64,000 bases of DNA from Bacteroidaceae bacterium (GTDB lineage Bacteria > Bacteroidota > Bacteroidia > Bacteroidales > Bacteroidaceae). The position numbers and the translations under genes are program-made. Positions 29,182 to 64,000 of the stretch are shown here, one piece after another. The stretch covers positions 16,567 through 80,566 of the forward strand of contig JAZQTU010000006.1 in the NCBI GenBank assembly GCA_045630965.1. The letters are read 5' to 3'. Under the pieces are notes generated by a model. The model had not been told where the DNA came from. It made no database searches and saw only the letters and a list, made by a program, of their open reading frames with translations. The number at the start of each line of letters is the position of its first letter. Positions within the stretch are counted from its first letter, which is position 1.

Positions 29182-29658
29182 TTATTTCTTTATAATTTTA
29201 TATTCTGTTATAGGTTCGTATAAATAAGGAACAAAATGGTATGCACGGCAAATGATTATGCTTTTGCTTGCTGTTGCATGCAATGTGACTTTTATTGGTA
29301 AGTTGTCATTCATTCTATCTTTGCTCAGCAGATAATCGATTTCTTCTTTTTCGACCATGTTGGTTACCAACTCTTTCATGCTGAGTTCAAAGAACAACTC
29401 TCTTTTTGTCAGTTTCTCATTTGTTGGTTGGTATATCAAGGATTTTGATGTTATGAACAATTTTATTATACCAATCGTAGCCAATATGAATGCTATCATA
29501 AGCGTTGGCATTTTGGCGCTGTTTTCCACTCCCATGCCTAATGCAATAGCTAACAATACTATTGTTGCAACAAGAAGGAATAAAGGGATATATGGGAATT
29601 TCCTTTTAAGTATTATGTTGTTATTTTCAAGGAATAATTTATCAAAATCTGTATTCAT
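29182..29658 (-). CDS. Hypothetical membrane protein (2 TM + C-terminal soluble domain)
   Basis: 158-aa ORF with TM segments IPLFLLVATIVLLAIALG and TLMIAFILATIGIIKLFI. AT-rich, with no recognisable family. Confidence 0.55.
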   Translation of the reverse strand: MNTDFDKLFLENNNIILKRKFPYIPLFLLVATIVLLAIALGMGVENSAKMPTLMIAFILATIGIIKLFITSKSLIYQPTNEKLTKRELFFELSMKELVTNMVEKEEIDYLLSKDRMNDNLPIKVTLHATASKSIIICRAYHFVPYLYEPITEYKIIKK

Positions 29659-29747
29659 TATTTAGTTTTTTAGAATAGTTATACAAAATATAATTGGGTT
29701 GCCATTTGTAATGGCAACCTGTTTTTAATTTTTTTATATAACAATTG

Positions 29748-30137
29748 CTAAATAACGATATGCCTCAAGGCGTATATATAATATCTGCGTGTGTGGCGAT
29801 ATTGTATTACTGCCTTGTGGCATAGAGCGAAAAGATATTCCGCCTTAATAGTGTTTACATAACTTTTGAAACTGCATCCACTCTTTGTGTTGTCGTAAGT
29901 ACGCCTTGTTGTATTGTTTTTACCATGACGTGTAAACGATATGTTGTTTTGTTGTGGATGCTCGAACTTACAGTGTTGTAAACGTTCTTGTAATTTGCAG
30001 ATACTGTTTTTTGTACTGTTTTTAATCTTACCATACTCTTTGTTGCTATAGTTCTCGGCAGCAATGGTATTGCAATTGCCTATAACAAAAAGTGTTGTAA
30101 GGAACAGTAATATGAATATGTGTATTCTGCGTTTCAT
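29748..30137 (-). CDS. Hypothetical small secreted, basic protein
   Basis: 129-aa ORF with signal peptide MKRRIHIFILLFLTTLFVIGNC. Lys/Arg/Asn-rich with 5 Cys. Confidence 0.45.
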   Translation of the reverse strand: MKRRIHIFILLFLTTLFVIGNCNTIAAENYSNKEYGKIKNSTKNSICKLQERLQHCKFEHPQQNNISFTRHGKNNTTRRTYDNTKSGCSFKSYVNTIKAEYLFALCHKAVIQYRHTRRYYIYALRHIVI

Positions 30138-30195
30138 TAAGTTTAATGTTCTATCTTTTGCAAAGATAGTTATTTTTTAACAATAGTATTGTGCT

Positions 30196-30396
30196 TTAAT
30201 ACTTTTCCTCTTTCATTTTACAATCTCTTAATAGATGTTTCTCGTTTTTGCTTATGTATATGCTACATTTTATGAACAGTAGCAACGATGCTGTGAAGAT
30301 GATTGTGGATATGAGGTTATTGAAAAGATTTTCTGCTGTGCCTAACATGAGTATTAATCCGGCCAACTGTAAAGCTATTATAATTTTTGCATTCAT
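30196..30396 (-). CDS. Hypothetical small 2-TM membrane protein
   Basis: 66-aa ORF with two hydrophobic helices and a charged C-terminal tail (KNEKHLLRDCKMKEEKY). Confidence 0.4.
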   Translation of the reverse strand: MNAKIIIALQLAGLILMLGTAENLFNNLISTIIFTASLLLFIKCSIYISKNEKHLLRDCKMKEEKY

Positions 30397-30422
30397 GTTT
30401 TCTTGGTTTTTGTCAGTAAATA

Positions 30423-30794
30423 CTAAAATCTCCAGTAAATTAATTTTTCTGTTTTCGGGATGTTCCTTTTTGTAATGAGCGTCGCCTTTTCCAGTTCTTT
30501 GTTTTTCCTCATCAGTGTCACTTCGCCTATTACCTCTTCTTCGTCACAGTTCTTGTCAATTCTTACTTCAATCCTGTATCTGTCCGGTCCAACGGTCTTT
30601 ATTCTTCCTTTAAGAAAGTTCTGGACGTATTCCTCATTGATGTATCCTTCCTTGATGCTGTATATCTCAACAAGGTCGCTTCTGTTGCTGTTTTTGTGTT
30701 TTAACTTGAGCTTCAGATATTCCCAAAGTTCCATGATCTTTTCAAGAAACATTACGTAAAGATGTCTGCAATTGTTTATAACTCTGCTTTTCAT
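30423..30794 (-). CDS. Hypothetical cytoplasmic protein
   Basis: 123-aa ORF. It is the first gene of the minus-strand string, divergent from the repressor gene. No recognisable motif. Confidence 0.5.
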   Translation of the reverse strand: MKSRVINNCRHLYVMFLEKIMELWEYLKLKLKHKNSNRSDLVEIYSIKEGYINEEYVQNFLKGRIKTVGPDRYRIEVRIDKNCDEEEVIGEVTLMRKNKELEKATLITKRNIPKTEKLIYWRF

Positions 30795-30939: not shown

Positions 30940-30955
30940 TAGCCAAATATGGCTA
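30940..30955. promoter_or_regulatory. Palindromic operator candidate TAGCCAAATATGGCTA
   Basis: 6-bp inverted arms TAGCCA/TGGCTA in the divergent intergenic region upstream of the S24 repressor gene. A near-identical site lies at 56605-56620. Confidence 0.5.
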
Positions 30956-31043: not shown

Positions 31044-31676
31044 ATGAAAAAAGACAATATAAAAGAGAGGGTAATTGCCGTATTGAAGTATAAAGGTCTT
31101 AACGTGAACAGAGCGAGCAGTATATTTGCAATGCCCCAACGTACATTGAACCGTCAAGTGAATGAAGATGGAAAGGTTGCGATGGAGCTTGTGTATGCCA
31201 TTCTTGATAATTTTCCTGAAATATCCCCTGCATGGCTCATAATGGGGGAGGGTGATATGTTGCGTGAGGAAAGTGTTGTAATGGAATGCGAAACGGCACC
31301 TTTTTACAGTGACATGCCGGTAAGCGCCGGTTTAAGAGAGGCGTTTGACCCTTCTCGTGAAAAAGCAAGTGGTTACATCTCGTTGCCTTCACAGAATGCG
31401 AGTTTCTATTTCCCCGTTTCCGGTACTTCTATGGAACCCGAAGTCTTTGCCGGTGACATTGTCGGAGTGGTAAGGGTTGAACCTGACGACAAGATAACTC
31501 CTGATGCCATATATATGATTGTAACAAATGATGCCAGAATGATCAAACATTGTTACATTGATGAGAATAATCATGAACTTTTATGGTGTGTGTCACCTAA
31601 TTATCCATCTTTCCCTATAAATAAATCGGACATATGTGCTATGTTCCGTGTTGTTTCAAGGATACAGTATTTCTGA
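31044..31676 (+). CDS. S24-peptidase (LexA/CI-type) phage repressor
   Basis: The ORF opens with TTG at 31038, and ATG at 31044 is preferred. The N-terminal HTH-like region reads GLNVNRASSIFAMPQRTLNRQV...ISPAWLIMGEGDM. The C-terminal S24 domain has Ser in VSGTSMEP and Lys in ARMIKHC. Confidence 0.8.
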   Translation: MKKDNIKERVIAVLKYKGLNVNRASSIFAMPQRTLNRQVNEDGKVAMELVYAILDNFPEISPAWLIMGEGDMLREESVVMECETAPFYSDMPVSAGLREAFDPSREKASGYISLPSQNASFYFPVSGTSMEPEVFAGDIVGVVRVEPDDKITPDAIYMIVTNDARMIKHCYIDENNHELLWCVSPNYPSFPINKSDICAMFRVVSRIQYF

Positions 31677-31700
31677 TATACCTTTATATTAAATAAAAAT

Positions 31701-31736
31701 ATCCCAATTGTCATAAAATGGTAATTGGGATATTTT
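31701..31736. terminator. Bidirectional terminator between repressor and 78-aa gene
   Basis: 9-bp stem ATCCCAATT / AATTGGGAT, flanked by an A-run upstream and a T-run downstream. Confidence 0.6.
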
Positions 31737-31747
31737 TGTGCTCTGTT

Positions 31748-31984
31748 TCATTCGATACCCCGTAAGGTCTGTTGCAGAAGCACGCTGATATTTTCATCAC
31801 CCTGGTCTCGTTCCTTGTTCAACTTGACAAGAAAATCTGCAGTGGTTTTCAACGCCTGGTTTATTGTGCCCGGGTCTTCGCAGTTGAGAGTCAGTTTTTC
31901 CAGACGGCCTATCAGACGATGGAACAGAGCTAGTGTCTCGTTGTGTACATCGTCAAGTGTGACATTTTTCTTCTGTTTCTTCAT
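31748..31984 (-). CDS. Hypothetical small helical protein (78 aa)
   Basis: Divergent from the 32128 operon. It is preceded by one arm of the 18-bp inverted repeat. No recognisable motif. Confidence 0.5.
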   Translation of the reverse strand: MKKQKKNVTLDDVHNETLALFHRLIGRLEKLTLNCEDPGTINQALKTTADFLVKLNKERDQGDENISVLLQQTLRGIE

Positions 31985-32002: not shown

Positions 32003-32114
32003 CTAAGTTATGGCGGATATAATCCTTTGTGGTTGCTGAAATGACAAAAGCATTCGCTGATGCTGCATTTTGTCATTTCAGCAACTTGATTCTTTCGTGA
32101 CCATGTTTCTTTTG
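32003..32114. promoter_or_regulatory. Divergent promoter region: perfect 18-bp inverted repeat carrying two TGTCATTTCAGCAAC boxes, each 21 nt from a -7-like box
   Basis: The arms are GTTGCTGAAATGACAAAA (32032-32049) and TTTTGTCATTTCAGCAAC (32068-32085). The plus side has TTCTTTTG at 32107-32114. The minus side has TAACTTAG (revcomp of 32003-32010). Confidence 0.6.
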
Positions 32115-32127: not shown

Positions 32128-32652
32128 ATGGCACTACCAATGATTTTGACAGGAATAAATGGGGCTTTGGGCCTCTATTCCACAATTAAGGGAATGATTG
32201 ATTCCCATGAGGCTAAAACAAAGCAGAACGCGTTACGTCAGGAAGCCCGTAACGAAGAGAATGCATGGTACAGAAGGAACTACTACGGCAATCTTATGGA
32301 TAACAAGGCCGCAAAGGCCGCCATAAAAAGGGTGGAGAATACCTTGCGCCGTAATAATGAAGAGGGGCGGGCGCGTAGTGTAATAACCGGTGCTACTCCT
32401 GAACATAACATTGCACGCAACGAGCAGGGACTACGTACAATGGAGAATGTTGTTGATAATCTTGCAGCCATTGACAGTAACGAAAAGAAAAGTATCGATG
32501 CTGCGCACAGGCAAAACAAAATCTCTATGATCAACAACGACCGTCAGCAACTTTCAATTGATGAGCGTATGGCCAAGAGTGCTGCATCAAACGGATACAA
32601 CCTTATGCAGAATGCCTTGTTGGGAGTGAACTGGGGAAAGGAGAAAAGATAA
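32128..32652 (+). CDS. Hypothetical virion-associated protein (174 aa)
   Basis: First gene of the operon that ends with the portal. It has a hydrophobic N-terminus followed by a long charged, Asn/Arg/Ala-rich helical sequence. Confidence 0.6.
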   Translation: MALPMILTGINGALGLYSTIKGMIDSHEAKTKQNALRQEARNEENAWYRRNYYGNLMDNKAAKAAIKRVENTLRRNNEEGRARSVITGATPEHNIARNEQGLRTMENVVDNLAAIDSNEKKSIDAAHRQNKISMINNDRQQLSIDERMAKSAASNGYNLMQNALLGVNWGKEKR

Positions 32653-32664
32653 TGTACATTGATT

Positions 32665-32955
32665 ATGAATGGAACTTATAAAGAAAATAAATCTGCGAAC
32701 TTTTGGGATGATTTTTTCAGGCGTCGGGAGAAAATGCTGCATGAACGGCAAGCCCGTGAATATGCTACGGGGGTTATTGGGCTGTTATCACAATTTCTTT
32801 CGCATAAAAAGCCAACAACTGAAACTGTTTCCAGTAAATCTTGTGGATATTTCTTCAACAAAGTGAATTGTATGCCCTGCTGCTATGCAGTCAGTATCAC
32901 TGCGGATATCTTGCCAGGGAAAGTAAAAAAGAACAGGATTAAAAGTAAAATTTGA
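32665..32955 (+). CDS. Hypothetical protein (96 aa)
   Basis: The ORF fills the gap between the 174-aa gene and the 1517-aa gene. ATG at 32665 is preferred, though the ORF opens with TTG at 32659. No motif. Confidence 0.45.
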   Translation: MNGTYKENKSANFWDDFFRRREKMLHERQAREYATGVIGLLSQFLSHKKPTTETVSSKSCGYFFNKVNCMPCCYAVSITADILPGKVKKNRIKSKI

Positions 32956-32958
32956 ATT

Positions 32959-35900
32959 ATGATATCAACGAACAATGACAATAGGAAAAAACGGAGTGAA
33001 AATAAAGATGTGTTCAATGCTGGCTATGAGAATGGGCTTTCGTTGAAAGGTATGGAATTTGGTGGAGAGGAACATGATATGTTTGCTACCGGGATGGATG
33101 CCATGAAAAGCCGTACGGCTGAAAAGTTGAACTATTTGACTGCTCCGGCTAATACCAAACAGCAGGAACTGGCCTTCAGGAACTCTTTTGCAGACTATAT
33201 GTTGCCTAAAGATTCTCAGGAACGTCATCGCAGGAATTATGCACTTTCAAGGGAGGCGCTCGATGATGTAGTCGGCGACTATTACAATAACAGCTTGAAA
33301 AGGAGATTTGAGATGAAGCGTGAGGATGCAAAAAGGGATGGTCGTAATGAATATATGCGTTATACATCTGTTCCTGGTGCCGACCCTGTCAATGCATACA
33401 AGGCTTCTGTGCGTGTCGATGATCCGGAGAGAGTTATTGATGAAACGATGAAAAGTGTGGACGATGATTATCTTATGAAACAGGTGGCGCCTTTGGCTTC
33501 GTATGGTGGCTATGATGCAAAGGAGTATGTCGATAATTTAGTAAAGCCGTCGTTGCGTGACAAAATGGTTAAAGAGTATATTGATGAAAATACTCCACGC
33601 AGCAGTGCTGAGTATGTCATGCGTTCTGCTTTTGACAATTCTCTAATGGGTAAAGTGGGGGCTCTTGGTTTGGCTGGGGATAAGTCTGCCAAGAGTAACC
33701 GTCTGCTTGCTTCCGAAGGAGTTGCCAATTATGATGCCAACAGAATGGAAAATTTTGCGGCAGGTGTCGGAGGTCTGCTTGTTGATACGCCTGCCTTTTC
33801 CGGTTTTGGAAGAGTCTCGGCTTCGATAGTGGGCAATGGAACCAGGAAGGCGGTTGAAAAGATTTCACGCAATGTCTTGTCGCGTTATAAGGACAGGCTT
33901 GTCAGCAAGGAATTCGCCGATGGCGTCGCACGCAAGGTTGTTGTAGAACGGCTGAAGAACCGCATAGTACAAGGTGCTACTGCTCAGGGTCTTACCCTTG
34001 GTGGGTATGACGTGGCAAACAGTGTGGCCGACGACATTCTTTATAACGGAACGGTCGATCCTGTCAAGGCTACAGGTTCTTTTGTCAAAGGATTTGCAAC
34101 GGGCGCGGCAGTTGGTGCTGTCGGTACATCAATGAGAGCACGCGTAAATGGCTTGACATCTGGAAAAAGATTGCTTTCCTCTGCGGGGGTGCTGAGCGCG
34201 GAGTCGGCTGTCTTTACAGCCGGAAGTGAACTGGACAAGCTGGCGCATGGTGTAGAGGTTGAGCCGATAGACCTGCTTTATGATTATGCAGAGAGTTCTG
34301 CAACTCTGCTTACAATGAGAATGGCCAATTGGCGTCCGAAAGGAGCTGCAGAAAAATTGGACAAGGAAGGGCATATAAAAGAAGAACTCAAACTCTCAAA
34401 ATCGCAAGCACAGGAACTTCGTGAGGCGAATGTCAATCCAGAAGAGTTTATGGAGATGATAGAACATGAATTGCGAATTCCTTCTCTCTCCAGCTCCGGT
34501 GCAAGATTGTTGAAGGAGAACTATGCCAAGCTAATGGCTGACAAGAACCTGTCTGCGGCTTCAAAATCAAAATTGATGTATCTTGTAGAGAATAAAATAA
34601 CATCTACACCGCCTGTGGTTTTTGATTATGAGGTTTCGCAAAATGAGCATGGAATATGGCTGGTGAAAATGCTTGATGCCGGCGGAGGGGTTGTTGAAAA
34701 TCTCTCTTTTGATAATGCCGGAGCTGCAAAAAGTCATCTCATTAAAGAGCGCGCAGGTATACGCAGGAACAGGATTGCTCATTTTGAAAATGAGTTGACT
34801 TCTGGTATCAATTCGTATAATTTTCTCCATGAAGCGGGGCTATATGCCAAAGAGAAGGGTGTCAGTGCCGACATCCTTGCTGAAGCAATGTACAAGAGTG
34901 CAAGAAAAGAACAACTCAATAGTACCGAGCAATTTATGATTGATGAGATTCTTGCCCGTTCATCGTATCATGAATCACAGATAAGCAGTGCGCTTTCAAA
35001 CGCAAGACGTAATATTGAAGAAAATTATAAGCTTGACAGAGGTGCTCTTTCGGCAATTGTCGACAAGCATTATTCGAATTGTACATTCACTGAAAATATG
35101 GCTCTTGACGAGTATGAGAACTTTGTACGTTCCGAGGTTGAAAGGATTAAGGAGCGTGCATCCGTGCCTCATCCTGCAGCGGTGCTCGGCATGAGCAATG
35201 CCGAAATCAAGCGTCGTGAGGCTGAAGAATACAATCAACGCCTGAATAATCGTCTTGCTGTGTCTGATGATGCGGTAACAAAACAGGATGCGGTTTTTGA
35301 AAAGTTGCGTGTTATTCCCGAAAACAGACCAGGACATGTCTGGAATGTTTATGGGCATGAGCTAAAGAAGGAGACTGTGGATGAGTATGAAAGACATGCG
35401 AGTGAGTTTTCAAGCAAGTTCGGTCAGGATATAGTATTCATTACAGACGAGCACCAGATTGAGAGACCAGCAGTAGAAACACCCGATGCTGTAAGAGAGT
35501 ACAACAACAGGCTGCATGCACTCGGTTGGGTCCATAAAGGAAAGGTGTATATAAACTTGCCGAATATTAAGGATCATGCTGAACTTGAAACTACAATAGT
35601 ACACGAAGTGGTGGGGCACCTTGGACTGAAGAAACTCTTTGGCCGTTATATGTATGACTTTATCGAGGATGTATACAAGAGCGCCGACGGTTCTGTAAGG
35701 CATGGCATAAACAAGATAAGGGATGCTTATGGCAAGACTGACATGTATACTGCAACAGAAGAGTATCTTGCAAGCCTTGTGGAAAAGGCGTATCCTAATG
35801 CTCAGGAGCGTAACCTTTTGGTCAGGTTCAAGGATTTTGTAAAAGGAATGCTTATAAGGCACAATATTTACAAGCCCAAGTATCGCAGAGTGAATGAAAA

Positions 35901-37512
35901 GGATTTACAGTCGATAATGGAAGCGCATTGCCGTTATGTGTTCAATAACAGGGATGCATCAAAACACCGTGGTGAGGTCTTTGGTAAATTCCGCAGTGCA
36001 ACTCTTGATGCTGAAGCTTATAGTAATCCGGATGATTATGCACGCCGTAAAAGGGATATGATACAGGAAGGCTCATATATGAAATGGACACCCGAAAAAT
36101 TCAAGGGGGCAAAATATCTTGTGAATTATCCCTATCTGCCTGCCAATATACAGGAAAGGATTATGAAGGAGACTGGAATGAGCGATGAGGCTCTTCGTAT
36201 GCAGAGTGAAGCGGCTAATTACCGTTTCGAGGGTAAGAAAGGAGCTAAAAACTACGGTAAAGCATATTATGAAGATATGGAAGAGGTGCTTGAGGATGCT
36301 GTATCCTTTGAGAAAGATGGTCTCTCTCCCTTGCAGATAAAGAAATTGACAGGCTGGGAGCGTGGCGCAGACGGTGAATGGCGTCGTGAAGTGTCGGAAT
36401 ATCCACGTCTGGTAAGAGATTATATATACGCTTCGCTGTTCGACAATAAACCGGAACTTGCAGAACTTTATAAAAAGATAAAGAAGGTGCCTTACGAAGC
36501 ATGGGGAGATACTGAAAAAGATGCTTGGGAGAGGGTTATGAAAGAGGGTAAACGTTATATGAAGAGGCCTGTTCTGCAGGATGTCGTCAACGACTTTGAA
36601 CTCTTTATCTCCTATCCCGAATTTGCAGCTATACCGGTAAGGATTGTTGAGGATGCTCCCTCGCTTGTACGTTACGACAGCAAGGCCAAGGAGATGGTAG
36701 TCGACAGGAAACTTTTTCTTTCTCCCGAGGCAAACGGCTATATGGCTGCAGCATTGCAGAATGTCATACAGGAGTATGAAGGGTTCAGCAAGGCGGTGTC
36801 GTTACGTCTGTTGTCGCTTGAAGGTAGGCTGGCAAAAAAATACAAGAATGCGCAGAAGTGCATTGCACTTGTAGACGGTGTGCGCAGAGAGTTGCCTTCC
36901 TTCGATGAGAATTCACAGATAGAACGCGCTTTTGAACGTGAATTTGGTATGGATATACAAACGTTCAAGAGAATGTATCCTACATACGATGACTATCTTT
37001 TCCATAAACTGACCGGGAAGAATTTCTCGTTCAGCGGTAATGTGGAGATGGAAAACGTACGCAAGCGTTACAAGATGAATGAAAAAGCCCGGAATTCTAC
37101 TCTTGCAGAAGAGACTGAATCGGTTCCTCGTGATAGGCAGGTGGTGGTAAAGAGGCTCGAAGACCTTGAAAAATATTTTACAGGACCGCTCGATGTTATT
37201 AACCGTTACGTGCACGATATACATTCTGACGAGCCTATGAAGGTGAGGTCGCTTGGAGGAAGGTTTGACAAGACAAAAGTGATGCCGGCCGAATTTGCTG
37301 AATTCGACAGTGAACTTGACAGTTATACCAAGTATCTTTTGCGTAATATGGTAAAGGAGAGGAGCGAAACCGGTGACTCTTACGGCTATAGGATGTATAA
37401 AGATCTAAAGGAACTTGGCAAAAAGGATATAAAGAAAAAGTTGGACAATTATGCAAAGGGTAGAGGTTGGTTCTGGAATATGAGTGATGATGACCTCAAT
37501 ATACTCAACTGA
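32959..37512 (+). CDS. Giant phage 'polyvalent'-type protein with zincin-like HExxH motif
   Basis: 1517-aa ORF immediately upstream of the portal gene. HEVVGH lies at 35602-35619 and TGWERGADGEWRRE at 36349-36390. Gly/Ala-rich hydrophobic segments span about aa 250-470. Confidence 0.6.
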   Translation: MISTNNDNRKKRSENKDVFNAGYENGLSLKGMEFGGEEHDMFATGMDAMKSRTAEKLNYLTAPANTKQQELAFRNSFADYMLPKDSQERHRRNYALSREALDDVVGDYYNNSLKRRFEMKREDAKRDGRNEYMRYTSVPGADPVNAYKASVRVDDPERVIDETMKSVDDDYLMKQVAPLASYGGYDAKEYVDNLVKPSLRDKMVKEYIDENTPRSSAEYVMRSAFDNSLMGKVGALGLAGDKSAKSNRLLASEGVANYDANRMENFAAGVGGLLVDTPAFSGFGRVSASIVGNGTRKAVEKISRNVLSRYKDRLVSKEFADGVARKVVVERLKNRIVQGATAQGLTLGGYDVANSVADDILYNGTVDPVKATGSFVKGFATGAAVGAVGTSMRARVNGLTSGKRLLSSAGVLSAESAVFTAGSELDKLAHGVEVEPIDLLYDYAESSATLLTMRMANWRPKGAAEKLDKEGHIKEELKLSKSQAQELREANVNPEEFMEMIEHELRIPSLSSSGARLLKENYAKLMADKNLSAASKSKLMYLVENKITSTPPVVFDYEVSQNEHGIWLVKMLDAGGGVVENLSFDNAGAAKSHLIKERAGIRRNRIAHFENELTSGINSYNFLHEAGLYAKEKGVSADILAEAMYKSARKEQLNSTEQFMIDEILARSSYHESQISSALSNARRNIEENYKLDRGALSAIVDKHYSNCTFTENMALDEYENFVRSEVERIKERASVPHPAAVLGMSNAEIKRREAEEYNQRLNNRLAVSDDAVTKQDAVFEKLRVIPENRPGHVWNVYGHELKKETVDEYERHASEFSSKFGQDIVFITDEHQIERPAVETPDAVREYNNRLHALGWVHKGKVYINLPNIKDHAELETTIVHEVVGHLGLKKLFGRYMYDFIEDVYKSADGSVRHGINKIRDAYGKTDMYTATEEYLASLVEKAYPNAQERNLLVRFKDFVKGMLIRHNIYKPKYRRVNEKDLQSIMEAHCRYVFNNRDASKHRGEVFGKFRSATLDAEAYSNPDDYARRKRDMIQEGSYMKWTPEKFKGAKYLVNYPYLPANIQERIMKETGMSDEALRMQSEAANYRFEGKKGAKNYGKAYYEDMEEVLEDAVSFEKDGLSPLQIKKLTGWERGADGEWRREVSEYPRLVRDYIYASLFDNKPELAELYKKIKKVPYEAWGDTEKDAWERVMKEGKRYMKRPVLQDVVNDFELFISYPEFAAIPVRIVEDAPSLVRYDSKAKEMVVDRKLFLSPEANGYMAAALQNVIQEYEGFSKAVSLRLLSLEGRLAKKYKNAQKCIALVDGVRRELPSFDENSQIERAFEREFGMDIQTFKRMYPTYDDYLFHKLTGKNFSFSGNVEMENVRKRYKMNEKARNSTLAEETESVPRDRQVVVKRLEDLEKYFTGPLDVINRYVHDIHSDEPMKVRSLGGRFDKTKVMPAEFAEFDSELDSYTKYLLRNMVKERSETGDSYGYRMYKDLKELGKKDIKKKLDNYAKGRGWFWNMSDDDLNILN

Positions 37513-37526
37513 TAAATTATGATGTT

Positions 37527-55067: not shown

Positions 55068-55127
55068 GTTGGATCGTGTTCCATTTTTTATATTGCAAGG
55101 AGAACTTGCCCATGCAGTATCATCTTT

Positions 55128-55604: not shown

Positions 55605-55615
55605 AGTCTGTTCCT

Positions 55616-56150: not shown

Positions 56151-56579
56151 CTAATTCAAGGCAAATTCTCTGTTGCGTTGGCGTATCGTCTTGTAGATTA
56201 TACCTCTGAAGGTCTCCTCTTCAAGGTAGAATGACGGTGCCGGTTCTTCAATAATCTTTTCAAGGATAATATATTTGTAGCGCTTGCTGCAATCTTTTAC
56301 CTGTTGCTTGTATCTGCGGTATATCTCCTTGTACATGGCAATCTTGTTCTCGTTGACTATCGGTAGTTTCTTCTTTCGCGATAACAACGAAACGAACCTT
56401 CGTGCATTCTCAAATGTAACATAGAAACGCGGAGCCTTGCTCTTTACAGCGTACTCAATCACTTCGTTCTGCGTTGCGAACGGCCTTGTTTTTCGTACCT
56501 CCTTGTACGATTCGTAGAAACTGTTGATTACATCCTGTTTACGCATCTCGCGAACAGAATTGTTCATGGTGTTTTTCAT
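56151..56579 (-). CDS. Hypothetical basic protein (142 aa), first gene of packaging operon
   Basis: The ORF opens at 56642, but the ATG at 56579 (MKNTMNNS...) lies 17 nt downstream of a perfect TACTTTTG -7 box. Lys/Arg-rich, and possibly DNA-binding or a small terminase. Confidence 0.55.
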   Translation of the reverse strand: MKNTMNNSVREMRKQDVINSFYESYKEVRKTRPFATQNEVIEYAVKSKAPRFYVTFENARRFVSLLSRKKKLPIVNENKIAMYKEIYRRYKQQVKDCSKRYKYIILEKIIEEPAPSFYLEEETFRGIIYKTIRQRNREFALN

Positions 56580-56596: not shown

Positions 56597-56639
56597 CAAA
56601 AGTATAGCCGAAAATGGCTAATAGTTTGCTGTTTTGACA
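56597..56639 (-). promoter_or_regulatory. Packaging-operon promoter: TGTCAAAACAGCAAA box, TAGCC-N6-GGCTA palindrome, TACTTTTG -7 box
   Basis: The minus strand reads TGTCAAAACAGCAAA (56639-56625), then a 20-nt spacer containing the palindrome (plus strand TAGCCGAAAATGGCTA, 56605-56620), then TACTTTTG (56604-56597). The ATG at 56579 follows 17 nt later. Confidence 0.6.
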
Positions 56640-56770: not shown

Positions 56771-56815
56771 TTGTCATTTCAGCAACCTTCTCGGGCTTTT
56801 CGTGTTGTTCCTTTG
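56771..56815 (+). promoter_or_regulatory. Head-operon promoter: TTGTCATTTCAGCAAC box + TTCCTTTG -7-like box
   Basis: The 16-nt string at 56771-56786 is identical to 32070-32085. After a 21-nt spacer comes TTCCTTTG (56808-56815), and the ATG at 56837 follows 21 nt later. Confidence 0.6.
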
Positions 56816-56836: not shown

Positions 56837-57619
56837 ATGGAAAAGAATTTCAACAAAGAAAAGAACGGCGCTTACGGCATGTCTGCTGTAGGCAATGGGA
56901 AAATCACTGCTCTTCATGAGCCACTAGCGGAACAGAACGCCTATTCGGCTCTTGACAGTGAACTCAAGAAAATGTTCGGCGAGGGTTTCGAACTCTCCGA
57001 CAGGTTATCACAGGATTTGCTTTTGCAGCATCTTCGTACGAATAGGGAACAGAATGAGCGTCTTGCCGGTATGCTTGAACGTGATCCTCGTCTGGCACAG
57101 TTGCTGACCGATGTTGTCAGTGGCAAGCGCAACGCTCACAGTGCCATGGCGCGCTATTTCGGTACTTCGTTCATGACTGTCGACGAGGACAGCCCTGAAT
57201 TTGAGGAGATAATGCTTGCCGACGAGGAACGAAAGGAGGAGATGATGCGTCTTGCAAACGACCGTAATGAGTATGAACGAAACCTTGCAGAGAGTGTACC
57301 TGTCATTGAAGAATTCTGCAAAGGGAAGGGCTATGATGCCTCTGACTTCATGGACAGGGTGTGGGAGTCACTTGTCTTTCCAATTCTGGCAGGAAAATAC
57401 ACTAACGAGGTGTGTGTGGCTCTCGATCATGCGGTCACATATGAGAAGGATGTCGAGGATGCCTTTATTGCCGGTGACATAAAGGGACGCAATACGAATA
57501 TCCAGCGTATGAAGGAGAATTTTGGGGACGGTATGCCAAAGGGAATGAGCAGCGTTGCTCCCGATACAGAAATAAAGCGCAAAAGGAATTCTCTTATCGA
57601 CAAGGCTCTTAATGCCTGA
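56837..57619 (+). CDS. Scaffolding-like protein
   Basis: The ATG at 56837 (MEKNFNKEK...) is preferred over the ORF opening at 56771. About 260 aa, acidic and helical (Glu/Asp/Arg/Leu-rich). It sits directly upstream of the capsid-like gene. Confidence 0.45.
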   Translation: MEKNFNKEKNGAYGMSAVGNGKITALHEPLAEQNAYSALDSELKKMFGEGFELSDRLSQDLLLQHLRTNREQNERLAGMLERDPRLAQLLTDVVSGKRNAHSAMARYFGTSFMTVDEDSPEFEEIMLADEERKEEMMRLANDRNEYERNLAESVPVIEEFCKGKGYDASDFMDRVWESLVFPILAGKYTNEVCVALDHAVTYEKDVEDAFIAGDIKGRNTNIQRMKENFGDGMPKGMSSVAPDTEIKRKRNSLIDKALNA

Positions 57620-57657
57620 TTGTAAAAAACTCAATTATTAACCTATAAAATTTTACT

Positions 57658-59277
57658 ATGAAAAAAATCATTTCATTCTTGAGGGAGAACCCTCTGTTTG
57701 TAATCATGTCGCTCGCAGCTATCGCATGCTACATTTGGGGTGACGCTGTCAGTGGTATAATAATGGCCGGTGTCAATCTCATGCCTGCCGGGTCGCCAAA
57801 ACCTTCAACCGGTATTGCCGGTTTGCCAACGCAGGGGCTTGGAGAGGCCACTACTGTTTCCAATGCCAGTGAACTAGGCAATGATCTCATTGAAGCCGAT
57901 ACTGATGACCAGATTATTGGCATTGCAAGTGACGAAAGTGTCATCGATACCATTAAGCGCAGGATACGCCGTCAGGTGCGAGTGAACTCATTTGAAGTAG
58001 ACCACTATCTTATCGACGACAAACGTTCCAAGGCCTACACTAACGCAACCTATACAGGTATGAACGCAACACGTGCCGAAATTCCATTCTCAACAACAGG
58101 AGAGAGAAAAATCTTCCAGCAGTACTATACGGCTATCTGTAAGGGTGTCAATGGTTATGACCCGACAGGACAGATAGAGCTTTCGGGAGTCGACCTCATG
58201 CTGTTCTTCGTGGATAAGAACACGACAAGCGAAGCGCCTATTGCCATGGCTGTCAACGGTCCTAAGATAAATGCAACCGATGAGTACTGCGTGATTCCTA
58301 CAATTCCTATGGGTACAGAGATTATTTTGCTCTCTTCGGCAGCATACGAGACACAGAAGTTTATCGCTCCCTCTACAATTGTACCTGTGCCTGAACGCAT
58401 GTACTTGCAAAAACAGTTATGCAACAGCATTGTGAGTGACTATTTCGCTGCACAGAAAAAACGCATCCAGTTCAGCGAGGCACAGATTGCAGAAGCTGTG
58501 TTGCGTCAGTTCCGTCTTGAGAGTTGCCGTACAGCGTGGGTCGGACAGCCCGGAAAGTTTAAGGTACAGGCTATGGACAACGCTATGGGTTATCAGTGGG
58601 ATTACTTCTCAAAAGGTATCCGTTGGCAGTTCAAGCGTCAGTACGATCTCTCTTCGAATATCACATTTGCTGATTTAATCAACCTATCAATGGTGAAGTT
58701 CACAGGTTTCAATTGTACCAAGCGTGCAATATGGCTGTTGGGTAAGCAGTTGTTGAATGATATTCAGAAAATAGACCTGACACTGCACAAGAATATCAGT
58801 GTCACCGGCGACAAGGTTTTTGGTATCGAGTGTACAAAAATACACACAGTGTTCGGTGATATCGACCTCATCCACGATCCTACTCTCGATGCCCTTGGCT
58901 ATGCTCACTGTGGTGGTCTTATTGATGAGAACGGTCTTGTGCGCTACTATATGAAGAACGAGGATGCAAAAACCGAAAATGTCGACGGTGAAGAGGCTAA
59001 ACGCGAGGTTGTTATGACTATCGACTGCTTGTGTCTTAAGGGATATTCTCATATCTGGGTGAACGGCTCTTCTGCCGAAAGCGATATTCCAGGTGCATCG
59101 CGCGTGACAAGTTCTGACAGTTTGCCGTCATCGCCGAATATCAACGATGTGGTAATCCTTACCGCCGATGTCAACCATGAGGTGAATGGTGAGAGCAAGA
59201 AGTGGTTCTGTGCCGGTTCTGTTGTCGCTTTCAACGGAAAGACTTGGGTGGAATATACTGGCGAGATTTTGGTGTAA
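57658..59277 (+). CDS. Major capsid protein candidate
   Basis: 539-aa ORF following the scaffold-like gene and ending at a strong terminator, a typical placement for an MCP. No fold assignment is possible by eye. Confidence 0.55.
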   Translation: MKKIISFLRENPLFVIMSLAAIACYIWGDAVSGIIMAGVNLMPAGSPKPSTGIAGLPTQGLGEATTVSNASELGNDLIEADTDDQIIGIASDESVIDTIKRRIRRQVRVNSFEVDHYLIDDKRSKAYTNATYTGMNATRAEIPFSTTGERKIFQQYYTAICKGVNGYDPTGQIELSGVDLMLFFVDKNTTSEAPIAMAVNGPKINATDEYCVIPTIPMGTEIILLSSAAYETQKFIAPSTIVPVPERMYLQKQLCNSIVSDYFAAQKKRIQFSEAQIAEAVLRQFRLESCRTAWVGQPGKFKVQAMDNAMGYQWDYFSKGIRWQFKRQYDLSSNITFADLINLSMVKFTGFNCTKRAIWLLGKQLLNDIQKIDLTLHKNISVTGDKVFGIECTKIHTVFGDIDLIHDPTLDALGYAHCGGLIDENGLVRYYMKNEDAKTENVDGEEAKREVVMTIDCLCLKGYSHIWVNGSSAESDIPGASRVTSSDSLPSSPNINDVVILTADVNHEVNGESKKWFCAGSVVAFNGKTWVEYTGEILV

Positions 59278-59295
59278 CATAACTTTCTTTTCAAT

Positions 59296-59335
59296 GACAC
59301 CCGGAGGCTCTTTGGGGTAATCCGGGTGTCTTTTT
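59296..59335 (+). terminator. Rho-independent terminator/attenuator after capsid-like gene
   Basis: 10-bp stem GACACCCGGA / TCCGGGTGTC followed by TTTTT. Confidence 0.8.
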
Positions 59336-59354
59336 ATTAAAAACAATATCAGAT

Positions 59355-59789
59355 ATGAAAAAGAGAATAACATACGAGATTCATGGACAGATTGAACGCA
59401 ATAGTTATTTCCGCATAGGCAAGGCTCTTGTGCGTATAGAATTCAGTGGTGGTGCAATAAACTCCACAGGTGTCTATCCGGCACAGTATGTCACCGACAA
59501 TCCATTGTTCCAGAAAGCAATTGAGAGCAGCGATGCTTACCAAAAAGGTGAAATAAAACGAGGAAGGGTAGAAGTGATAGAAGAAACCGGCAAGGATGAA
59601 AATGCTGATGCCGGAACAGTATTGCATGAAACCTCTTTGGCTGTATTTCCCGAAGTACAGAATATGCAGCAGGCACGTTCCGTTTTAATGGATGAACCGT
59701 ACAACTGTACTCTTGCCCAGCTTCAGAACAAGAATATGATAAAGGCTGTGGCGTTGGAGAAGGGTGTCACATTTCCTAACTGGTTATGA
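59355..59789 (+). CDS. Hypothetical virion protein (144 aa)
   Basis: The ORF overlaps the next gene by 4 nt (ATGA coupling). No recognisable motif. Confidence 0.55.
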   Translation: MKKRITYEIHGQIERNSYFRIGKALVRIEFSGGAINSTGVYPAQYVTDNPLFQKAIESSDAYQKGEIKRGRVEVIEETGKDENADAGTVLHETSLAVFPEVQNMQQARSVLMDEPYNCTLAQLQNKNMIKAVALEKGVTFPNWL

Positions 59790-60430
59790 CGGCAACTGAT
59801 ACTCTTGTAAAGAAGGTACGTCGCCTTGTCAACGAGGCTGAGAACGATTCCGATGTCTCGTTGATAACCGAAGACATGCGTTCGCTTGACGATACGATAC
59901 TGGAACTTCTTCCACAGGCTGTAGCTTTGGTGCAACGCTGTTCACATGGAGGACATGTGAATGTCAAGGCTCTGTCTAATGAAGCAAAAAAAGTGCAGGA
60001 AGTTTCTGACGGCTCATACAATGTTGCCTTGCCAGGTGATTTCTTCAAGCTTGTGTCGTTGCAGCTTACTTCGTGGAAAAGGGCCTGCATGGAAATTTCA
60101 TCGCCAGAATCACTGGATGCTGTAAATGCAGTAAATGGCAGTTCTTGTGTTGGAGCTTTCAACCCGGTATGCGTAGAGAGCATCGTGGATGGTGGTGCGA
60201 AAGTTGTAAAACTTTTTCCGTGTAATGCCAGTGATGAAGTTGTACATTTTGTGTACGAGGCACAATTTAATGTTGCCGACGGGTTGGCGATGTGCGACAG
60301 TTACATGGCAGATGCTGTAACATATGCCTGTACCTCTCTTTTGTATACGGTGTTCGAGAAACATGATGCTGCAAAACCCTTCATGTCGTATGCCATGGCG
60401 CTGTGTGGAGGTGAAAAGAGTTCTAATTGA
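59786..60430 (+). CDS. Hypothetical head-completion/connector-like protein (214 aa)
   Basis: Translationally coupled to its neighbours. The function is guessed from position only. Confidence 0.5.
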   Translation: MTATDTLVKKVRRLVNEAENDSDVSLITEDMRSLDDTILELLPQAVALVQRCSHGGHVNVKALSNEAKKVQEVSDGSYNVALPGDFFKLVSLQLTSWKRACMEISSPESLDAVNAVNGSSCVGAFNPVCVESIVDGGAKVVKLFPCNASDEVVHFVYEAQFNVADGLAMCDSYMADAVTYACTSLLYTVFEKHDAAKPFMSYAMALCGGEKSSN

Positions 60431-60444
60431 TAATTGTAAATATT

Positions 60445-60912
60445 ATGGATAGCTTGAAGTTTGTAATGGCATCCTTGTTGGCGAATGTTGCAGGGTTGCT
60501 TTTTCCAATACGCAACGATATTTTCGGTTTGGTGTTGCTCTTCAGTGTTAATTTTATTGTGGGTTTGCTTGCCGACGTTGGAAACCATCGTGACTGGAGT
60601 TTCCGTAAGGCATTCTGTTTCTTCCGTGATGCAGCGATATATTTTGTCATGGTAACATCAATATATATGCTCGGCCGTCTCAAGGGCGAAGAGGTTGCTG
60701 CTGTGTATTGTGTTTCCTTCATGATTTACGTTGCCATATATTTCTACGGGACAAATATACTGCGTAATGCAAGGCTTATCACAAATGAGAAAAGTACGCT
60801 TTACCGCATACTCGACTTTCTCTACTATATTATGAGCCTTCGTGTCCTCGAACGATATGCATGCCTGAAAGATTATTTCGACTATGAGAAACGTGAGGAT
60901 AATAATCGTTAG
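60445..60912 (+). CDS. Holin-like 4-TM membrane protein
   Basis: The ATG at 60445 (MDSLKF...) is preferred, though the ORF opens with TTG at 60427. Four hydrophobic helices and a highly charged C-terminal tail (DYFDYEKREDNNR). The downstream spanin-like gene overlaps it by 29 nt. Confidence 0.5.
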   Translation: MDSLKFVMASLLANVAGLLFPIRNDIFGLVLLFSVNFIVGLLADVGNHRDWSFRKAFCFFRDAAIYFVMVTSIYMLGRLKGEEVAAVYCVSFMIYVAIYFYGTNILRNARLITNEKSTLYRILDFLYYIMSLRVLERYACLKDYFDYEKREDNNR

Positions 60913-61267
60913 CGTCATACTTCTGCTGTTCATCAGTTGCAGGGTAAAGGACACAGTGACGACTGAACGTGCATCGGCAAATATGCGTGTTGAACGGGTG
61001 CTTGTCGACAGCATAATCCTAAGGGATAGTGTGGTGATAAGGGAGAGGTGCGACACTGTGTTCTTTACCAAATACCGTACACTTTACAAGGAACGTCTTC
61101 GTCACGACACTGTAGTCAAATGTGATACGGTATATACCGAGCGCGTGGTTACTGTGAAGGATACCAAAGGCTCTTCATTCTTGTGGCTGTTGCTGCTGCC
61201 ATTGTTGGCTGTGCTTTGGAAAGTTGGAGTCTTTGACCTCTTACGTAAAATTATTTTGAGAAAATAG
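60884..61267 (+). CDS. Unimolecular-spanin-like protein (N-terminal lipoprotein signal + C-terminal TM)
   Basis: 127-aa ORF with lipobox-like IIIVSVILLLFISC, a beta-rich charged middle, and a C-terminal TM segment SSFLWLLLLPLLAVLWKVGVF followed by a basic tail. This architecture matches u-spanins such as T1 gp11. Confidence 0.5.
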   Translation: MRNVRIIIVSVILLLFISCRVKDTVTTERASANMRVERVLVDSIILRDSVVIRERCDTVFFTKYRTLYKERLRHDTVVKCDTVYTERVVTVKDTKGSSFLWLLLLPLLAVLWKVGVFDLLRKIILRK

Positions 61268-61271
61268 ATAT

Positions 61272-64000
61272 ATGCATAAGAATTTTTCATTCAAAGGGGT
61301 GGTGAGGAGCAATGACAATCTTCTTGCCAATGAGGGAGAATGTCTGGAACTGGTCAACCTCCGTATGGTGAACGGCTCTCTTCGCCCTATCCCAACCATG
61401 GTCGAGGAGGCTTGCCTGTATAGTGAATATTCCGCGATATATTGGCATGGAAAGGCATCGTGCTATATGTGTATAACAAAAGATGCTGAACGTAGTGTCG
61501 ATTTCTACGATGCACAATGGAATCTGCTGCTCGGTAATCAGGGAACAAAACTCCATTTCCCGTTGCTTACAAAGGTCAGAAGTGTGGAATTTATGGGATA
61601 TGTTGTTTCGTGTATTACTGACAACGGTATACGTTATCTGCTTTATAGTAACGGAACCTATCGCTGGCTTGGCGAAACTCCCATAATACCAACTTTGACT
61701 ATTACTCCTTCTGCAGCAGTGCATAGCGTGGATACTACTGTCTCCTTTACAACAAATACGGTGGATACGCCTGTCTCTTCGTTGTGGCAGTACAATTCAC
61801 GTGGTTATTTTGACGAATGCATTGCAAAATCCAACAAAGCCGGGTATTACATAGACCGTGCGTTGTTTAGGTTTGCATTGCGCCTGTATGACGGATCGTA
61901 CATTTATGTTTCACATCCAATATATGTGAGCAATGATGCCGAAGTGGATGGTGTCTCACGTGATGCCGGAAACCTTGTGGCCGTAAAGAATGACGCTTCC
62001 TCTTCCTCTTCTACATACAAGGTGAAGGTGGTTGGCTTCAAGCCTCAGCTCAAGTTCGATAACCTGAAAATGGAGGACTGGGAAGGAGTTGTTGTGGGTA
62101 TAGACGTCTTTACCACCGGTTCTATAATGGGTAATAAGGTAGATGAAGCCCTTGTTACTGTACTTGATACAGAAACAAAGGAACACACTACCGAAAGGAT
62201 AGAGGTCTACAAGAATAAGGAACTTGATGAGATATATGCCGAAACAGGTGAAGCTTCGCTATATTATAAGGTGGCTGAATTCAGTATCTGGGGCAAATGC
62301 CAGCACAGTGTCGATGATGTCTCTCAGGCGAATATTGTGTTGCAGGATGCCTTAAGCTCTTTTGAGCAACGACATACAATGTCATCGATAGTCCCGGATT
62401 GCAGCTATATGTTCAACAATAGGTTGCATGTGGCATCGTTGCGCGAATATCTGTTCAAAGGATATGAACGCTCTTCGTTGTTGCCTGTTGGTGTTGGAAA
62501 GGAGATGATTGACATGGTTGTGGTGCGTACAAGGTTAAACACACAGAATGGCATATCAACTGTCTTGAATACTTTTGAGAATGTATTTGTCGGATATGAC
62601 AAGGATACATTCCTATTGCCTCCCTTGCTCTCTTATCCCGATTCGCGCGCATTCGAGATGAGTGTCTTCTTCTACTACGATACGGAATGGTTCGGTAAGC
62701 ATTTTATTCTTACACCTCATAAATATCTTAACATGTCACAGTATATCCATAAAACATCATTTGGATATTCGGTGACTGTGCAATCTATCTTTGCCAGTGG
62801 AGGTGGCATTGCCGGTTCGCTGTCAGCAGCAACGGCAGTAGAACTGTTCGGAGAGCAACCTGCAACCCACGAGGTGGTCTATTCTGCATCTTTACACGGG
62901 TGGACATACAAAGGGAGTGCCTTTCCGCCCAAGGAGTACTCCTCGTTAAGGATTTTTGCAATACCACGTGATGTAAAGGATGGTGACAAAATTGTGATTA
63001 CTATAAGCAAGTCGACATCTTCAACCACATTCATTGACATCGGTAATATACAGTTTGACAGCACATGGGAGGTGTTGGGTAGCATTGACGATTGTGGCAA
63101 AGAGGAGAATGTCTATGAGATACGTGAGAATGTTATGAAGGTATCTGTAGTTGAGAATCCTTTTATATTTCCAGTAAAGTGTACTTATCCTCTTTCTCAG
63201 GGAAAGATAGTTGCGCTCTCGACCAACCGTGCTGCGATGTCCGAAGGACAGTTCGGAGAACATCCTCTGTACATATTCTCACAGGAGGGTATAGCAGTGA
63301 TGTCTGTAGATGCTTCGGGAAAAACGGCTTACAGCAATATTTACCCCGTTTCTCATGAAGTGTGCTGCAATGCAGACATGGTATGCGGAACCGATTCTGG
63401 CGTTCTTTTTCTTGGCTTACAGGGTGTGATGCTCATATCGGGAAACCGTTGTGTAAGGTTGTCTGTTGCCATAGACAATGAAAGTGATGATACGGCATTG
63501 TTGGAGCCGTCGGGTATAATAAGCCGCATAGCCTCCATGCATGGGCTTGGTGATGTGTTGGACAATTTGCATTTCCATGACTTCATGTGTGGTGCAAAGG
63601 TTATACGTAATGCAACCATGGGTGAGTTGTTGTTCTGTAATGCTGACTATGCGTACAGTTATATATATTCACTATCGGCGAATGTCTGGAGCAAAACTGA
63701 TATGAGGCTCTGTGGGTTTGTTCAAAAAAGAGAAGGTGTAGCTATGTTCAATAATACAGCCGGAACCACTAGGGTTCTTGTTCCGGGCGATAATGCTGCC
63801 GGTTCGAATAAGGTATTGCTGATTACGCGCCCACATCACTTTGGAACCAAAATACCAAAGCGCATAATGCAACTGATGCTGCATGCCAGTCTCGCAAAGC
63901 CACAGGGTAGTGGTAGCTCGTCGGCATTTGTCTCTTGCTTTCTGCTGTGTAGCAACGATGGGGTGAATTTCAAACTGGTAACAGGGTGTGAAAAGAAAAA
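61272..64000 (+). CDS. Large virion (tail/adsorption apparatus?) protein, 5' part; open at window end
   Basis: Not in the supplied ORF track. I read the frame from the ATG at 61272 codon by codon to 64000 (909 codons) and found no stop. It starts 5 nt after the spanin-like stop. No recognisable motif. Confidence 0.8.
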   Translation, partial: MHKNFSFKGVVRSNDNLLANEGECLELVNLRMVNGSLRPIPTMVEEACLYSEYSAIYWHGKASCYMCITKDAERSVDFYDAQWNLLLGNQGTKLHFPLLTKVRSVEFMGYVVSCITDNGIRYLLYSNGTYRWLGETPIIPTLTITPSAAVHSVDTTVSFTTNTVDTPVSSLWQYNSRGYFDECIAKSNKAGYYIDRALFRFALRLYDGSYIYVSHPIYVSNDAEVDGVSRDAGNLVAVKNDASSSSSTYKVKVVGFKPQLKFDNLKMEDWEGVVVGIDVFTTGSIMGNKVDEALVTVLDTETKEHTTERIEVYKNKELDEIYAETGEASLYYKVAEFSIWGKCQHSVDDVSQANIVLQDALSSFEQRHTMSSIVPDCSYMFNNRLHVASLREYLFKGYERSSLLPVGVGKEMIDMVVVRTRLNTQNGISTVLNTFENVFVGYDKDTFLLPPLLSYPDSRAFEMSVFFYYDTEWFGKHFILTPHKYLNMSQYIHKTSFGYSVTVQSIFASGGGIAGSLSAATAVELFGEQPATHEVVYSASLHGWTYKGSAFPPKEYSSLRIFAIPRDVKDGDKIVITISKSTSSTTFIDIGNIQFDSTWEVLGSIDDCGKEENVYEIRENVMKVSVVENPFIFPVKCTYPLSQGKIVALSTNRAAMSEGQFGEHPLYIFSQEGIAVMSVDASGKTAYSNIYPVSHEVCCNADMVCGTDSGVLFLGLQGVMLISGNRCVRLSVAIDNESDDTALLEPSGIISRIASMHGLGDVLDNLHFHDFMCGAKVIRNATMGELLFCNADYAYSYIYSLSANVWSKTDMRLCGFVQKREGVAMFNNTAGTTRVLVPGDNAAGSNKVLLITRPHHFGTKIPKRIMQLMLHASLAKPQGSGSSSAFVSCFLLCSNDGVNFKLVTGCEKK

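Follow-up and report, generated by a model that had tools for sequence, protein, structure and literature searches.

The closest described counterparts of the system reported here are RcGTA, the gene transfer agent (GTA) of Alphaproteobacteria; PBSX, a GTA-like defective prophage of Bacillus subtilis; FpGTA from Faecalibacterium; and the capsid-forming phage-inducible chromosomal islands (cf-PICIs). A 2026 list of known GTAs contains none from Bacteroidota and calls FpGTA the first podovirus-like one (PMC12946183). Our full-text literature searches likewise turned up no description of a GTA or domesticated particle system from Bacteroidota, in agreement with an earlier reading of the DNA letters alone (the original prediction), which had held that such a system would be new. 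Here we describe an element in a 64,000-nt stretch, hereafter the window, of contig JAZQTU010000006.1 from a Bacteroidaceae bacterium, in which phage-derived structural and packaging genes reside in the host chromosome as two blocks (block A, 29182-39431; block B, 53079 to ~64148) that together form one non-redundant podovirus gene set. These blocks are probably parts of a single, anciently domesticated, repressor-controlled, multi-locus podovirus system that is GTA-like and vertically inherited in gut Bacteroidaceae. A more tentative proposal is that this could be the first GTA-type system of Bacteroidota, an independent domestication of a podovirus from the Bacteroides temperate-phage family that joins an SOS-type repressor and a late-promoter code to three trans-acting late operons, repeatedly scattered among essential genes as a gut Bacteroidaceae clade radiated.

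Like RcGTA, the element comprises phage-derived head and packaging genes without integrase or replication genes, co-diverges vertically with its host under purifying selection, and is spread over several jointly regulated chromosomal loci. RcGTA differs in its HK97-like siphovirus origin (a podovirus with a P22-type portal and an SU10-type adaptor and nozzle here) and in its control by CtrA/GafA or quorum sensing (apparently a phage-type S24 repressor here); moreover, the locus layout of the element varies between species. PBSX is similarly held by a repressor, and the two share probable SOS inducibility, a lack of propagation, release by lysis, and an expected packaging of chromosomal DNA, but PBSX is contiguous, myovirus-like, and confined to one species group, whereas the element is podovirus-like, modular, and found in many species. 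FpGTA is also a GTA-like system of podovirus type in a gut commensal, encoded in a compact operon that includes TerL and TerS and is conserved across the genus; it belongs to another phylum, its genes are unrelated, and its packaged fragments of 8.4-8.9 kb have been seen experimentally, in contrast to an element known from genes (PMC12946183). The cf-PICIs, finally, share with the element their own capsid, portal, and terminase and the absence of a full tail, but they are horizontally mobile and equipped with integrase, replication, and helper-sensing modules.

None of these satellite hallmarks (an integrase, a replication/primase gene, a helper-responsive regulator, or horizontal mobility) was seen in the element, which therefore does not qualify as a cf-PICI. 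Nor is the element in the window an intact temperate prophage, since it is not contiguous and lacks an integrase, att sites, and a replication module. Pfam and phrog scans found no integrase, transposase, or replication domain anywhere in the window, as the original prediction had stated, and with no integration, excision, or replication module present the element is not self-transmissible.

Gene content of the element

The features of the two blocks, and the host genes between them, are listed below in window coordinates.

29182..30137, minus strand: s158 and s129, AT-rich; s158 has two transmembrane segments and s129 a signal peptide
30196..30794, minus strand: early unit of s123 and s66, a pair found beside the repressor in every lineage
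30940..30955: TAGCCAAATATGGCTA, a palindromic operator between s123 and the repressor, where their divergent promoters lie
31044..31676, plus strand: S24 repressor of LexA/CI type, predicted to be self-cleaving (PF00717, phrog_4)
31693..31739: hairpin of a bidirectional terminator (20-bp stem), between repressor and p78
31748..31984, minus strand: p78, a small conserved gene of 78 aa (75-92% identity)
32032..32085: late motif TTGTCATTTCAGCAAC as an inverted pair upstream of the p174/portal operon; 24 nt and then TTTTG come after the plus-strand copy
32128..39431, plus strand: portal operon (p174, p98, 1517-aa LPD23 protein, P22-type portal)
39483..53021: core genes of the host that separate the blocks and lie outside the element (ligA, dapA, TIGR02757, maeB, MBL, rsmG, a 281-aa gene, rmuC, trpS, GH35)
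53079..56086, minus strand: packaging operon (par156, par158, TerL), with a degenerate late motif upstream at 56138-56153
56151..56579, minus strand: p163, 142 aa, first gene of the minus-strand operon (phrog_27246)
56605..56620: TAGCCGAAAATGGCTA, the other copy of the palindromic operator, which directly adjoins the TAnnTTTG-type -7 box of the p163 promoter
56771..56786, plus strand: late motif TTGTCATTTCAGCAAC upstream of the scaffold/capsid operon, followed by 24 nt and CTTTG
56837..64000 and beyond, plus strand: capsid/tail operon (scaffold, capsid, p144, adaptor, holin-like, u-spanin-like, nozzle)

The head and packaging genes are well supported by profile and sequence searches. The portal (37527-39431) matches PF16510 P22_portal at 1.9e-36, with 126 bits against a cut-off of 26, and phrog_156 at 2.5e-54, which identifies it as the predicted P22-type portal of a P22/SU10-like podovirus virion module, and TerL (53079-55067, minus strand) matches phrog_2 at 1.5e-22. 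The profile of the 539-aa capsid protein matches 9in6_M, 'major capsid of VP1' (E=5e-7), and tblastn searches add matches to the genes at the capsid position in Bacteroides temperate phages; both matches indicate a major capsid protein related to solved podovirus capsids. The last gene of block B, visible in the window as more than 909 aa, encodes 958 aa and ends ~148 bp past the window, as read through a 99%-identical nozzle homologue in a related locus. Its AlphaFold2 model (pLDDT 81.6) resembles the nozzle/tail-hub proteins of P22 (gp10), SU10, Sf6, VP1, and GP4, with Foldseek values of 1e-10 for P22 gp10 and 1.5e-10 for the SU10 nozzle and further support from BFVD, and the protein is accordingly identified as a podovirus nozzle of the P22 gp10/SU10 type.

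The 214-aa protein is SU10_adaptor-like (PF24175), a weak match of 23.5 bits that lies below the cut-off of 27; the position of such an adaptor after the capsid gene is conserved in phages. Several transmembrane segments and a weak holin match characterise the 161-aa protein, the 127-aa protein combines a lipobox with a C-terminal transmembrane segment in a u-spanin topology, and s66 (66 aa, 30196-30396, minus strand) resembles a holin in topology, with a charged C-terminus and two transmembrane segments. In the 1517-aa protein, a candidate internal or ejected protein, an LPD23 polyvalent-protein domain was recognised. The repressor contains an N-terminal helix-turn-helix DNA-binding domain, an A-G cleavage site (VSAGL), and a Ser-Lys dyad (Ser in GTSMEP, Lys in MIKH), the features of a LexA/CI-type repressor, and it is predicted to cleave itself. 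p163 is the sole block-B gene directly behind an operator, and its homologue in phage relatives lies immediately upstream of TerL; it is a candidate TerS and/or early regulator. A single-sequence AlphaFold2 model of p163 reached a pLDDT of 45.6 and was not used. The paralogs par156 and par158 both match phrog_19255, and a third member of this family stands after the nozzle in many relatives (the L019-L042 lineages; L-numbers denote related loci compared with the window). The window lineage is without this third paralog, and purH follows the nozzle there instead, as read beyond the window from the 99.6% identical contig of L094.

s158 and s129 are restricted to the window-type lineage (the window and L001) and are probably accessory genes; Pfam and phrog scans gave no family match for either. 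PDB sequence and profile searches returned nothing useful for par158/par156, p163, the 1517-aa LPD23 protein, or the nozzle, relaxing the Pfam threshold brought no match for the nozzle, p127, p144, or p174, and an Rfam scan found nothing within the element.

The original prediction had set out much of this content, and its account of both blocks was borne out: block A with its small genes, S24 repressor, 78-aa gene, and portal operon, the portal, capsid, and TerL calls by the searches above, and the remainder of block B with the start of the 260-aa scaffold product corrected to the ATG at 56837 and with the length and end of the nozzle gene given above. The core genes that it placed between the blocks were recovered as well (ligA, dapA, TIGR02757, maeB, MBL, rsmG, rmuC, trpS, and GH35), as was an AT-rich zone holding four small genes, where GC content falls to 0.32-0.33 at 29-31 kb compared with ~0.44 elsewhere in the window. 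Its statements that no strong hairpin separates portal from ligA and that no obvious direct repeat flanks the element also stood: the analysis found no terminator-type hairpin at that place and no long flanking direct repeats.

Conservation and co-inheritance with the host

Homologues of portal and of TerL at 77-93% identity number in the thousands for each gene, nearly all of them in Bacteroidaceae metagenome-assembled genomes (MAGs) from animal guts, and more than 590 TerL relatives were found among the GTDB species genomes. About 40 of 80 retrieved TerL relatives are 74-88% identical to the TerL of the window and are accompanied by the same block B. Several TerL relatives lie on MAG contigs labelled as non-Bacteroidota (L022, Eubacteriales; L049, Bacilli; L056, Mollicutes; L059, Dialister); the label of L022, at 78% identity, is likely due to bin contamination.

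Decay in relatives, which the original prediction had named beforehand, together with transcriptional silence, as an observation that would count against it, was not seen. Across ~45 close loci, stop-free open reading frames were found for TerL in 39/39 cases, for the capsid in 30/30, for the nozzle in 27/27, and for the portal in 8/8. The scaffold and p127 at first appeared broken in relatives, but these cases are alignment shortfalls of divergent genes (coverage 0.66-0.84) and not stop codons. In comparisons with the nearest relatives, at dS >1, the ratios of nonsynonymous to synonymous substitution (dN/dS) for portal (0.025), TerL (0.042), and capsid (0.031) lie at the level of the host genes ligA (0.026), dapA (0.030), maeB (0.019), and trpS (0.021), all of these values being approximate because dS is saturated.

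The element also diverges in step with its host. Portal dN follows ligA dN in three lineages, and in a comparison of 15 non-independent pairs from six lineages, divergence correlates with the host-gene mean at r=0.89 for portal and r=0.94 for the LPD23 protein and gives the same groupings. In every lineage examined, ligA-dapA-DUF2400-maeB follows the portal. A conserved gene of 139-140 aa, without a family match, stands between portal and ligA in other loci (L086, 12143-12562; L091, 12141-12563; L198, 13479-13898); the window is without it, and ligA starts there 100 bp after the portal stop.

These patterns point to vertical inheritance with the host under purifying selection. Intact reading frames, host-like dN/dS, co-divergence, and the conserved portal-ligA junction fit neither a decaying remnant nor a horizontally moving phage, and together with the lack of a close relative in IMG/VR and the conserved cis-elements described below, they support the domestication that the original prediction had offered as one of its two readings.

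Origin from Bacteroides temperate phages

The cultured phage BS-TP4 and its relatives (64-68 kb) and more than 100 IMG/VR contigs (40-70 kb) share one gene layout, which runs from a giant protein and the portal through a convergent TerL with small genes to the scaffold, capsid, a small gene, and the adaptor, and in which portal and TerL are always adjacent. In BS-TP4, the giant protein after the adaptor is the target of a diversity-generating retroelement (DGR) (PMC12694917). The module layout of the element is that of BS-TP4, BKO1-TP3, and BF1-TP2 (PMC12694917) and of their IMG/VR relatives. Its capsid is 22-24% identical to those of the cultured phages, and the best identities to IMG/VR contigs are 63% for portal, 64% for capsid, and 66% for TerL. 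Besides an endolysin and genes for lysogeny and replication, these contiguous phages of 40-70 kb encode giant tail proteins diversified by a DGR, whereas the element amounts to only ~20 kb, has giant proteins shortened to 1517 and 958 aa, and is chromosomally fixed. Layout and identities together indicate that the element derives from the BS-TP4 phage family after losing about two thirds of the genome (~40 kb of functions).

IMG/VR scans with portal and capsid found no member of the 74-100% identity clade, and a TerL-alignment scan, whose search patterns were specific to the close clade, returned only a 24% match. A second, more divergent module (TerL 61-67%, capsid 63-73%) was observed in L039, from the same MAG as L007, and in L043, from the same MAG as L030. 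Both copies have a phage-like context with extra tail-fibre-like genes, which indicates that genuine prophage relatives coexist with the domesticated element.

Arrangement in related loci

At least five lineage-specific arrangements of the element exist, in which the late operons and the repressor unit differ in relative position between species. A contiguous version, which the original prediction had proposed to look for in related genomes, is present in L005, where the nozzle is followed by s-genes, the repressor, p78, p173, the LPD gene, the portal, and ligA. On one 78.9-kb contig, an L005-like layout is interrupted between repressor and p78 by ~13 kb with a tyrosine integrase and an nSTAND3 gene; in two further lineages, an ATP-synthase operon adjoins p78 while the repressor stays beside block B. 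The terminator between repressor and p78 in the window (31693..31739) is thus a breakpoint in other lineages. The sub-clade of the window (represented by the independent assemblies L001-L004, L088, and L094) keeps the repressor with the portal block and has a host gene after the nozzle. In five species, the TerL operon stands alone among host genes (queA, rubrerythrin, RHS, and ABC genes), and the TerL-side flank differs in nearly every species.

L007 carries the trpS, DUF3298, rsmG, and MBL flank of the window beside TerL but has s123 beyond the nozzle, so that the order in the window looks like a block interchange of an ancestral order. As far as these gene orders indicate, the ancestral arrangement would have been host genes, TerL to nozzle, repressor to portal, and ligA, and the split in the window is specific to its lineage. 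The differing breakpoints, with every part intact, imply action in trans by components that are not packaged together as a genome. These comparisons revise both readings of the original prediction. The notion of a system fixed around essential genes was not borne out, since the 13.6-kb split is one of the several arrangements and the element is contiguous in L005. The idea of a prophage broken by rearrangement holds insofar as a rearrangement did split the element here; what was split was an already domesticated element and no recent prophage.

Two copies of one tyrosine integrase family were found among the ~45 loci. In L091 the copy (1-4118) lies between repressor and p78 with a 1239-aa nSTAND3 NTPase, and in L006 (12009-13208) it follows TerL; the two are 90% identical over the last 51 aa and occupy two different element boundaries, which suggests a defence-carrying island that targets terminator regions. 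We considered the L006 integrase as an ancestral part of the element and rejected this, because the same family is placed elsewhere in L091 with nSTAND3 and occurs in no other locus. A BspA-type LRR_5 protein of ~1055 aa with a phrog_35892 match stands beside the element in L007 (12083-15250) and also in L006, L012, L017, L018, and L027; it could be a coincidental neighbour or a surface/adsorption component.

Shared cis-elements and regulation

The original prediction had suggested that shared cis-elements still link the two blocks, and these proved real and conserved. The sequence TAGCC-N6-GGCTA occurs in exactly two copies in the window, both at the promoters listed above. In 1.0 Mb of related loci, the relaxed form TAGYC-N6-GRCTA has 42 matches compared with 4.6 in shuffled sequence, and 39 of the 42 lie at the two promoter sites. 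The 16-mer TTGTCATTTCAGCAAC is present in three exact copies in the window, with a degenerate copy before par156, and all three late operons share TGTCAnnnCAGCAAC, exactly 24 nt, and then YTTTG. The late motif is kept at the same three positions in relatives, including solitary TerL operons without p163. This distribution supports a two-tier circuit, with early units behind operators and three late operons with a common promoter. The regulator is encoded by the element itself, as a LexA/CI-type repressor with conserved operators, and its link to host RecA and the SOS response is one that we infer.

Proposed mechanism

We propose that the S24 repressor would bind TAGYC-N6-GRCTA in two places, the divergent promoter region that serves both s123 and the repressor gene itself and the promoter of p163. 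DNA damage would lead to RecA-stimulated self-cleavage of the repressor and release the early genes s123, s66, and p163, after which an early product or a host factor would turn on the three late promoters (TGTCAnnnCAGCAAC, 24 nt, YTTTG). Procapsids would then form, TerL would package DNA through the portal, the adaptor and nozzle would close the head, and the holin-like and spanin-like proteins would release the particles. With no excision or replication and with parts that lie far apart in many species, the packaged DNA must be chromosomal, either random or from a fixed site; where the genes are dispersed, as they are in several species, self-packaging is impossible. The element may serve as a GTA, in the sense of packaging and transferring host DNA.

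Several points weigh against this reading. All members of the family come from uncultured MAGs, and the system is known from genes alone. Pfam, phrog, and PDB searches and AlphaFold2 models recognised no endolysin, no tail fibre or receptor-binding protein, and no clear TerS, so that the particles may not adsorb or inject unless further loci elsewhere supply these functions. Repressor binding to the palindrome is inferred, as is the nature of the late activator, and control appears to lie with a phage-type repressor and not with a host regulator as in RcGTA. In species with a contiguous layout, the ~20-kb element could fit into its own capsid. The integrase beside TerL in L006 also counts on this side, as do the saturation of dS and the limited, overlapping sampling behind the co-divergence test.

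Alternative explanations

Among the alternatives, a fixed 'grounded prophage' that serves as a platform for lateral transduction survives best, although we regard it as unlikely. Such an element would contain a pac site from which successive headfuls run into the adjoining chromosome, without random sampling. Its genes and regulation would be the same as those of a GTA-like system, the portal-ligA junction is kept in every lineage, and TerL keeps small candidate partners upstream, namely p163 and par158 (whose frame overlaps the TerL start in L087). Against these points, neither a pac site nor a TerS was identified by PDB searches or by AlphaFold2 of p163, and the TerL-side flank varies in almost every species, leaving ligA to maeB as the only conserved cargo.

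Slightly less likely still, domesticated particles could serve a role other than transfer, such as SOS-triggered altruistic lysis, release of extracellular DNA, action as a killer particle, or interference with infecting phage relatives through assembly parts in common. PBSX-type particles, which package host DNA without transferring it, provide a precedent. Packaging by PBSX is cited in PMC12946183. The unrecognised fibre/receptor-binding and endolysin genes would suit such a role, as would the related genuine phages or prophages that share MAGs with the element (L039 with L007, L043 with L030). However, TerL and portal are constrained as strongly as the capsid, which argues that DNA packaging itself is under selection.

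That the element is a capsid-forming satellite, similar to a cf-PICI, which makes its own heads and borrows fibres and mobility from helpers of the BS-TP4 family, seems improbable. It does encode head, packaging, adaptor, and nozzle proteins but no fibres that could be recognised, there are helper-like phages whose giant tail proteins are diversified by a DGR, and an integrase adjoins TerL in L006. Yet the window holds no integrase, replication, or excision gene, the integrase family is limited to L006 and L091, the parts are dispersed, the location beside ligA is fixed, the element co-diverges with its host, and IMG/VR contains no close-identity copy.

That the element is a defunct prophage remnant, split by a recent rearrangement and undergoing decay, is largely refuted and very improbable: the split in the window, the many missing phage functions, and AT-rich, variable regions such as 29.2-30.2 kb might evoke one, but the core element genes are all intact in ~45 species-level loci, dN/dS stays at 0.025-0.042 at dS >1 for portal, TerL, and capsid, and the promoter and operator motifs are conserved. 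Least probable of all is that misassembly created the split in the window through a chimeric join at the GH35/TerL junction. In favour of this, the contig is of metagenome type, a search for independent assemblies across 53022-53080 found none (the junction hairpin had no exact match in JGI metagenomes, and a TerL scan gave more block-B loci, none spanning the junction), and exact-protein look-ups for the portal and P0001 were unsuccessful. Against it, the other window-type junctions recur in independent assemblies (lrgB and s158 through repressor in L001-L003, a host gene after the nozzle in L094 and L088), L007 carries the same trpS, DUF3298, rsmG, and MBL flank beside TerL, and splits elsewhere in the element are seen on single contigs.

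Neighbouring host genes and other features

Upstream of 29 kb, the window consists of host genes that include ileS, lspA, tyrS, a BamA-like gene, gdhA, and lrgB, and the tRNA-Lys noted in the original prediction was located at 27313-27386 on the minus strand. lrgB and a 120-aa LrgA-like partner with multiple transmembrane segments (27998-29049, minus strand) form a host holin/antiholin-type pair that adjoins block A; the pair is 92-93% conserved at the same site in L001 and is not beside the element in other lineages. An RNase P class A RNA (RF00010, 239 bits) lies at 4282-4630 on the minus strand, and a 1209-aa open reading frame without a Pfam family at E<=1e-4 lies among housekeeping genes at 10869-14498 on the plus strand. 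A perfect 25-nt inverted repeat at 53032-53083, between the stops of GH35 and TerL, is probably a bidirectional terminator at the block-B boundary, and similar perfect hairpins of 21-24 nt follow ligA (41534-41585) and maeB (45681-45723).

Implications for gene exchange in Bacteroidota

Bacteroidales rank with the most abundant bacteria of the gut and exchange genes at very high rates, which so far have been attributed mainly to conjugative elements. If the proposed GTA-like system is real, host-owned particles that package chromosomal DNA would represent a new route of exchange in Bacteroidota. It would also be an independent domestication of a virus with its steps legible in the genomes: phage functions amounting to ~40 kb were lost, the giant proteins shrank, the repressor and late-promoter code were kept, and the operons were progressively scattered. 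The conserved operator and late motif would offer handles both for experiments and for locating the remaining loci of the system.

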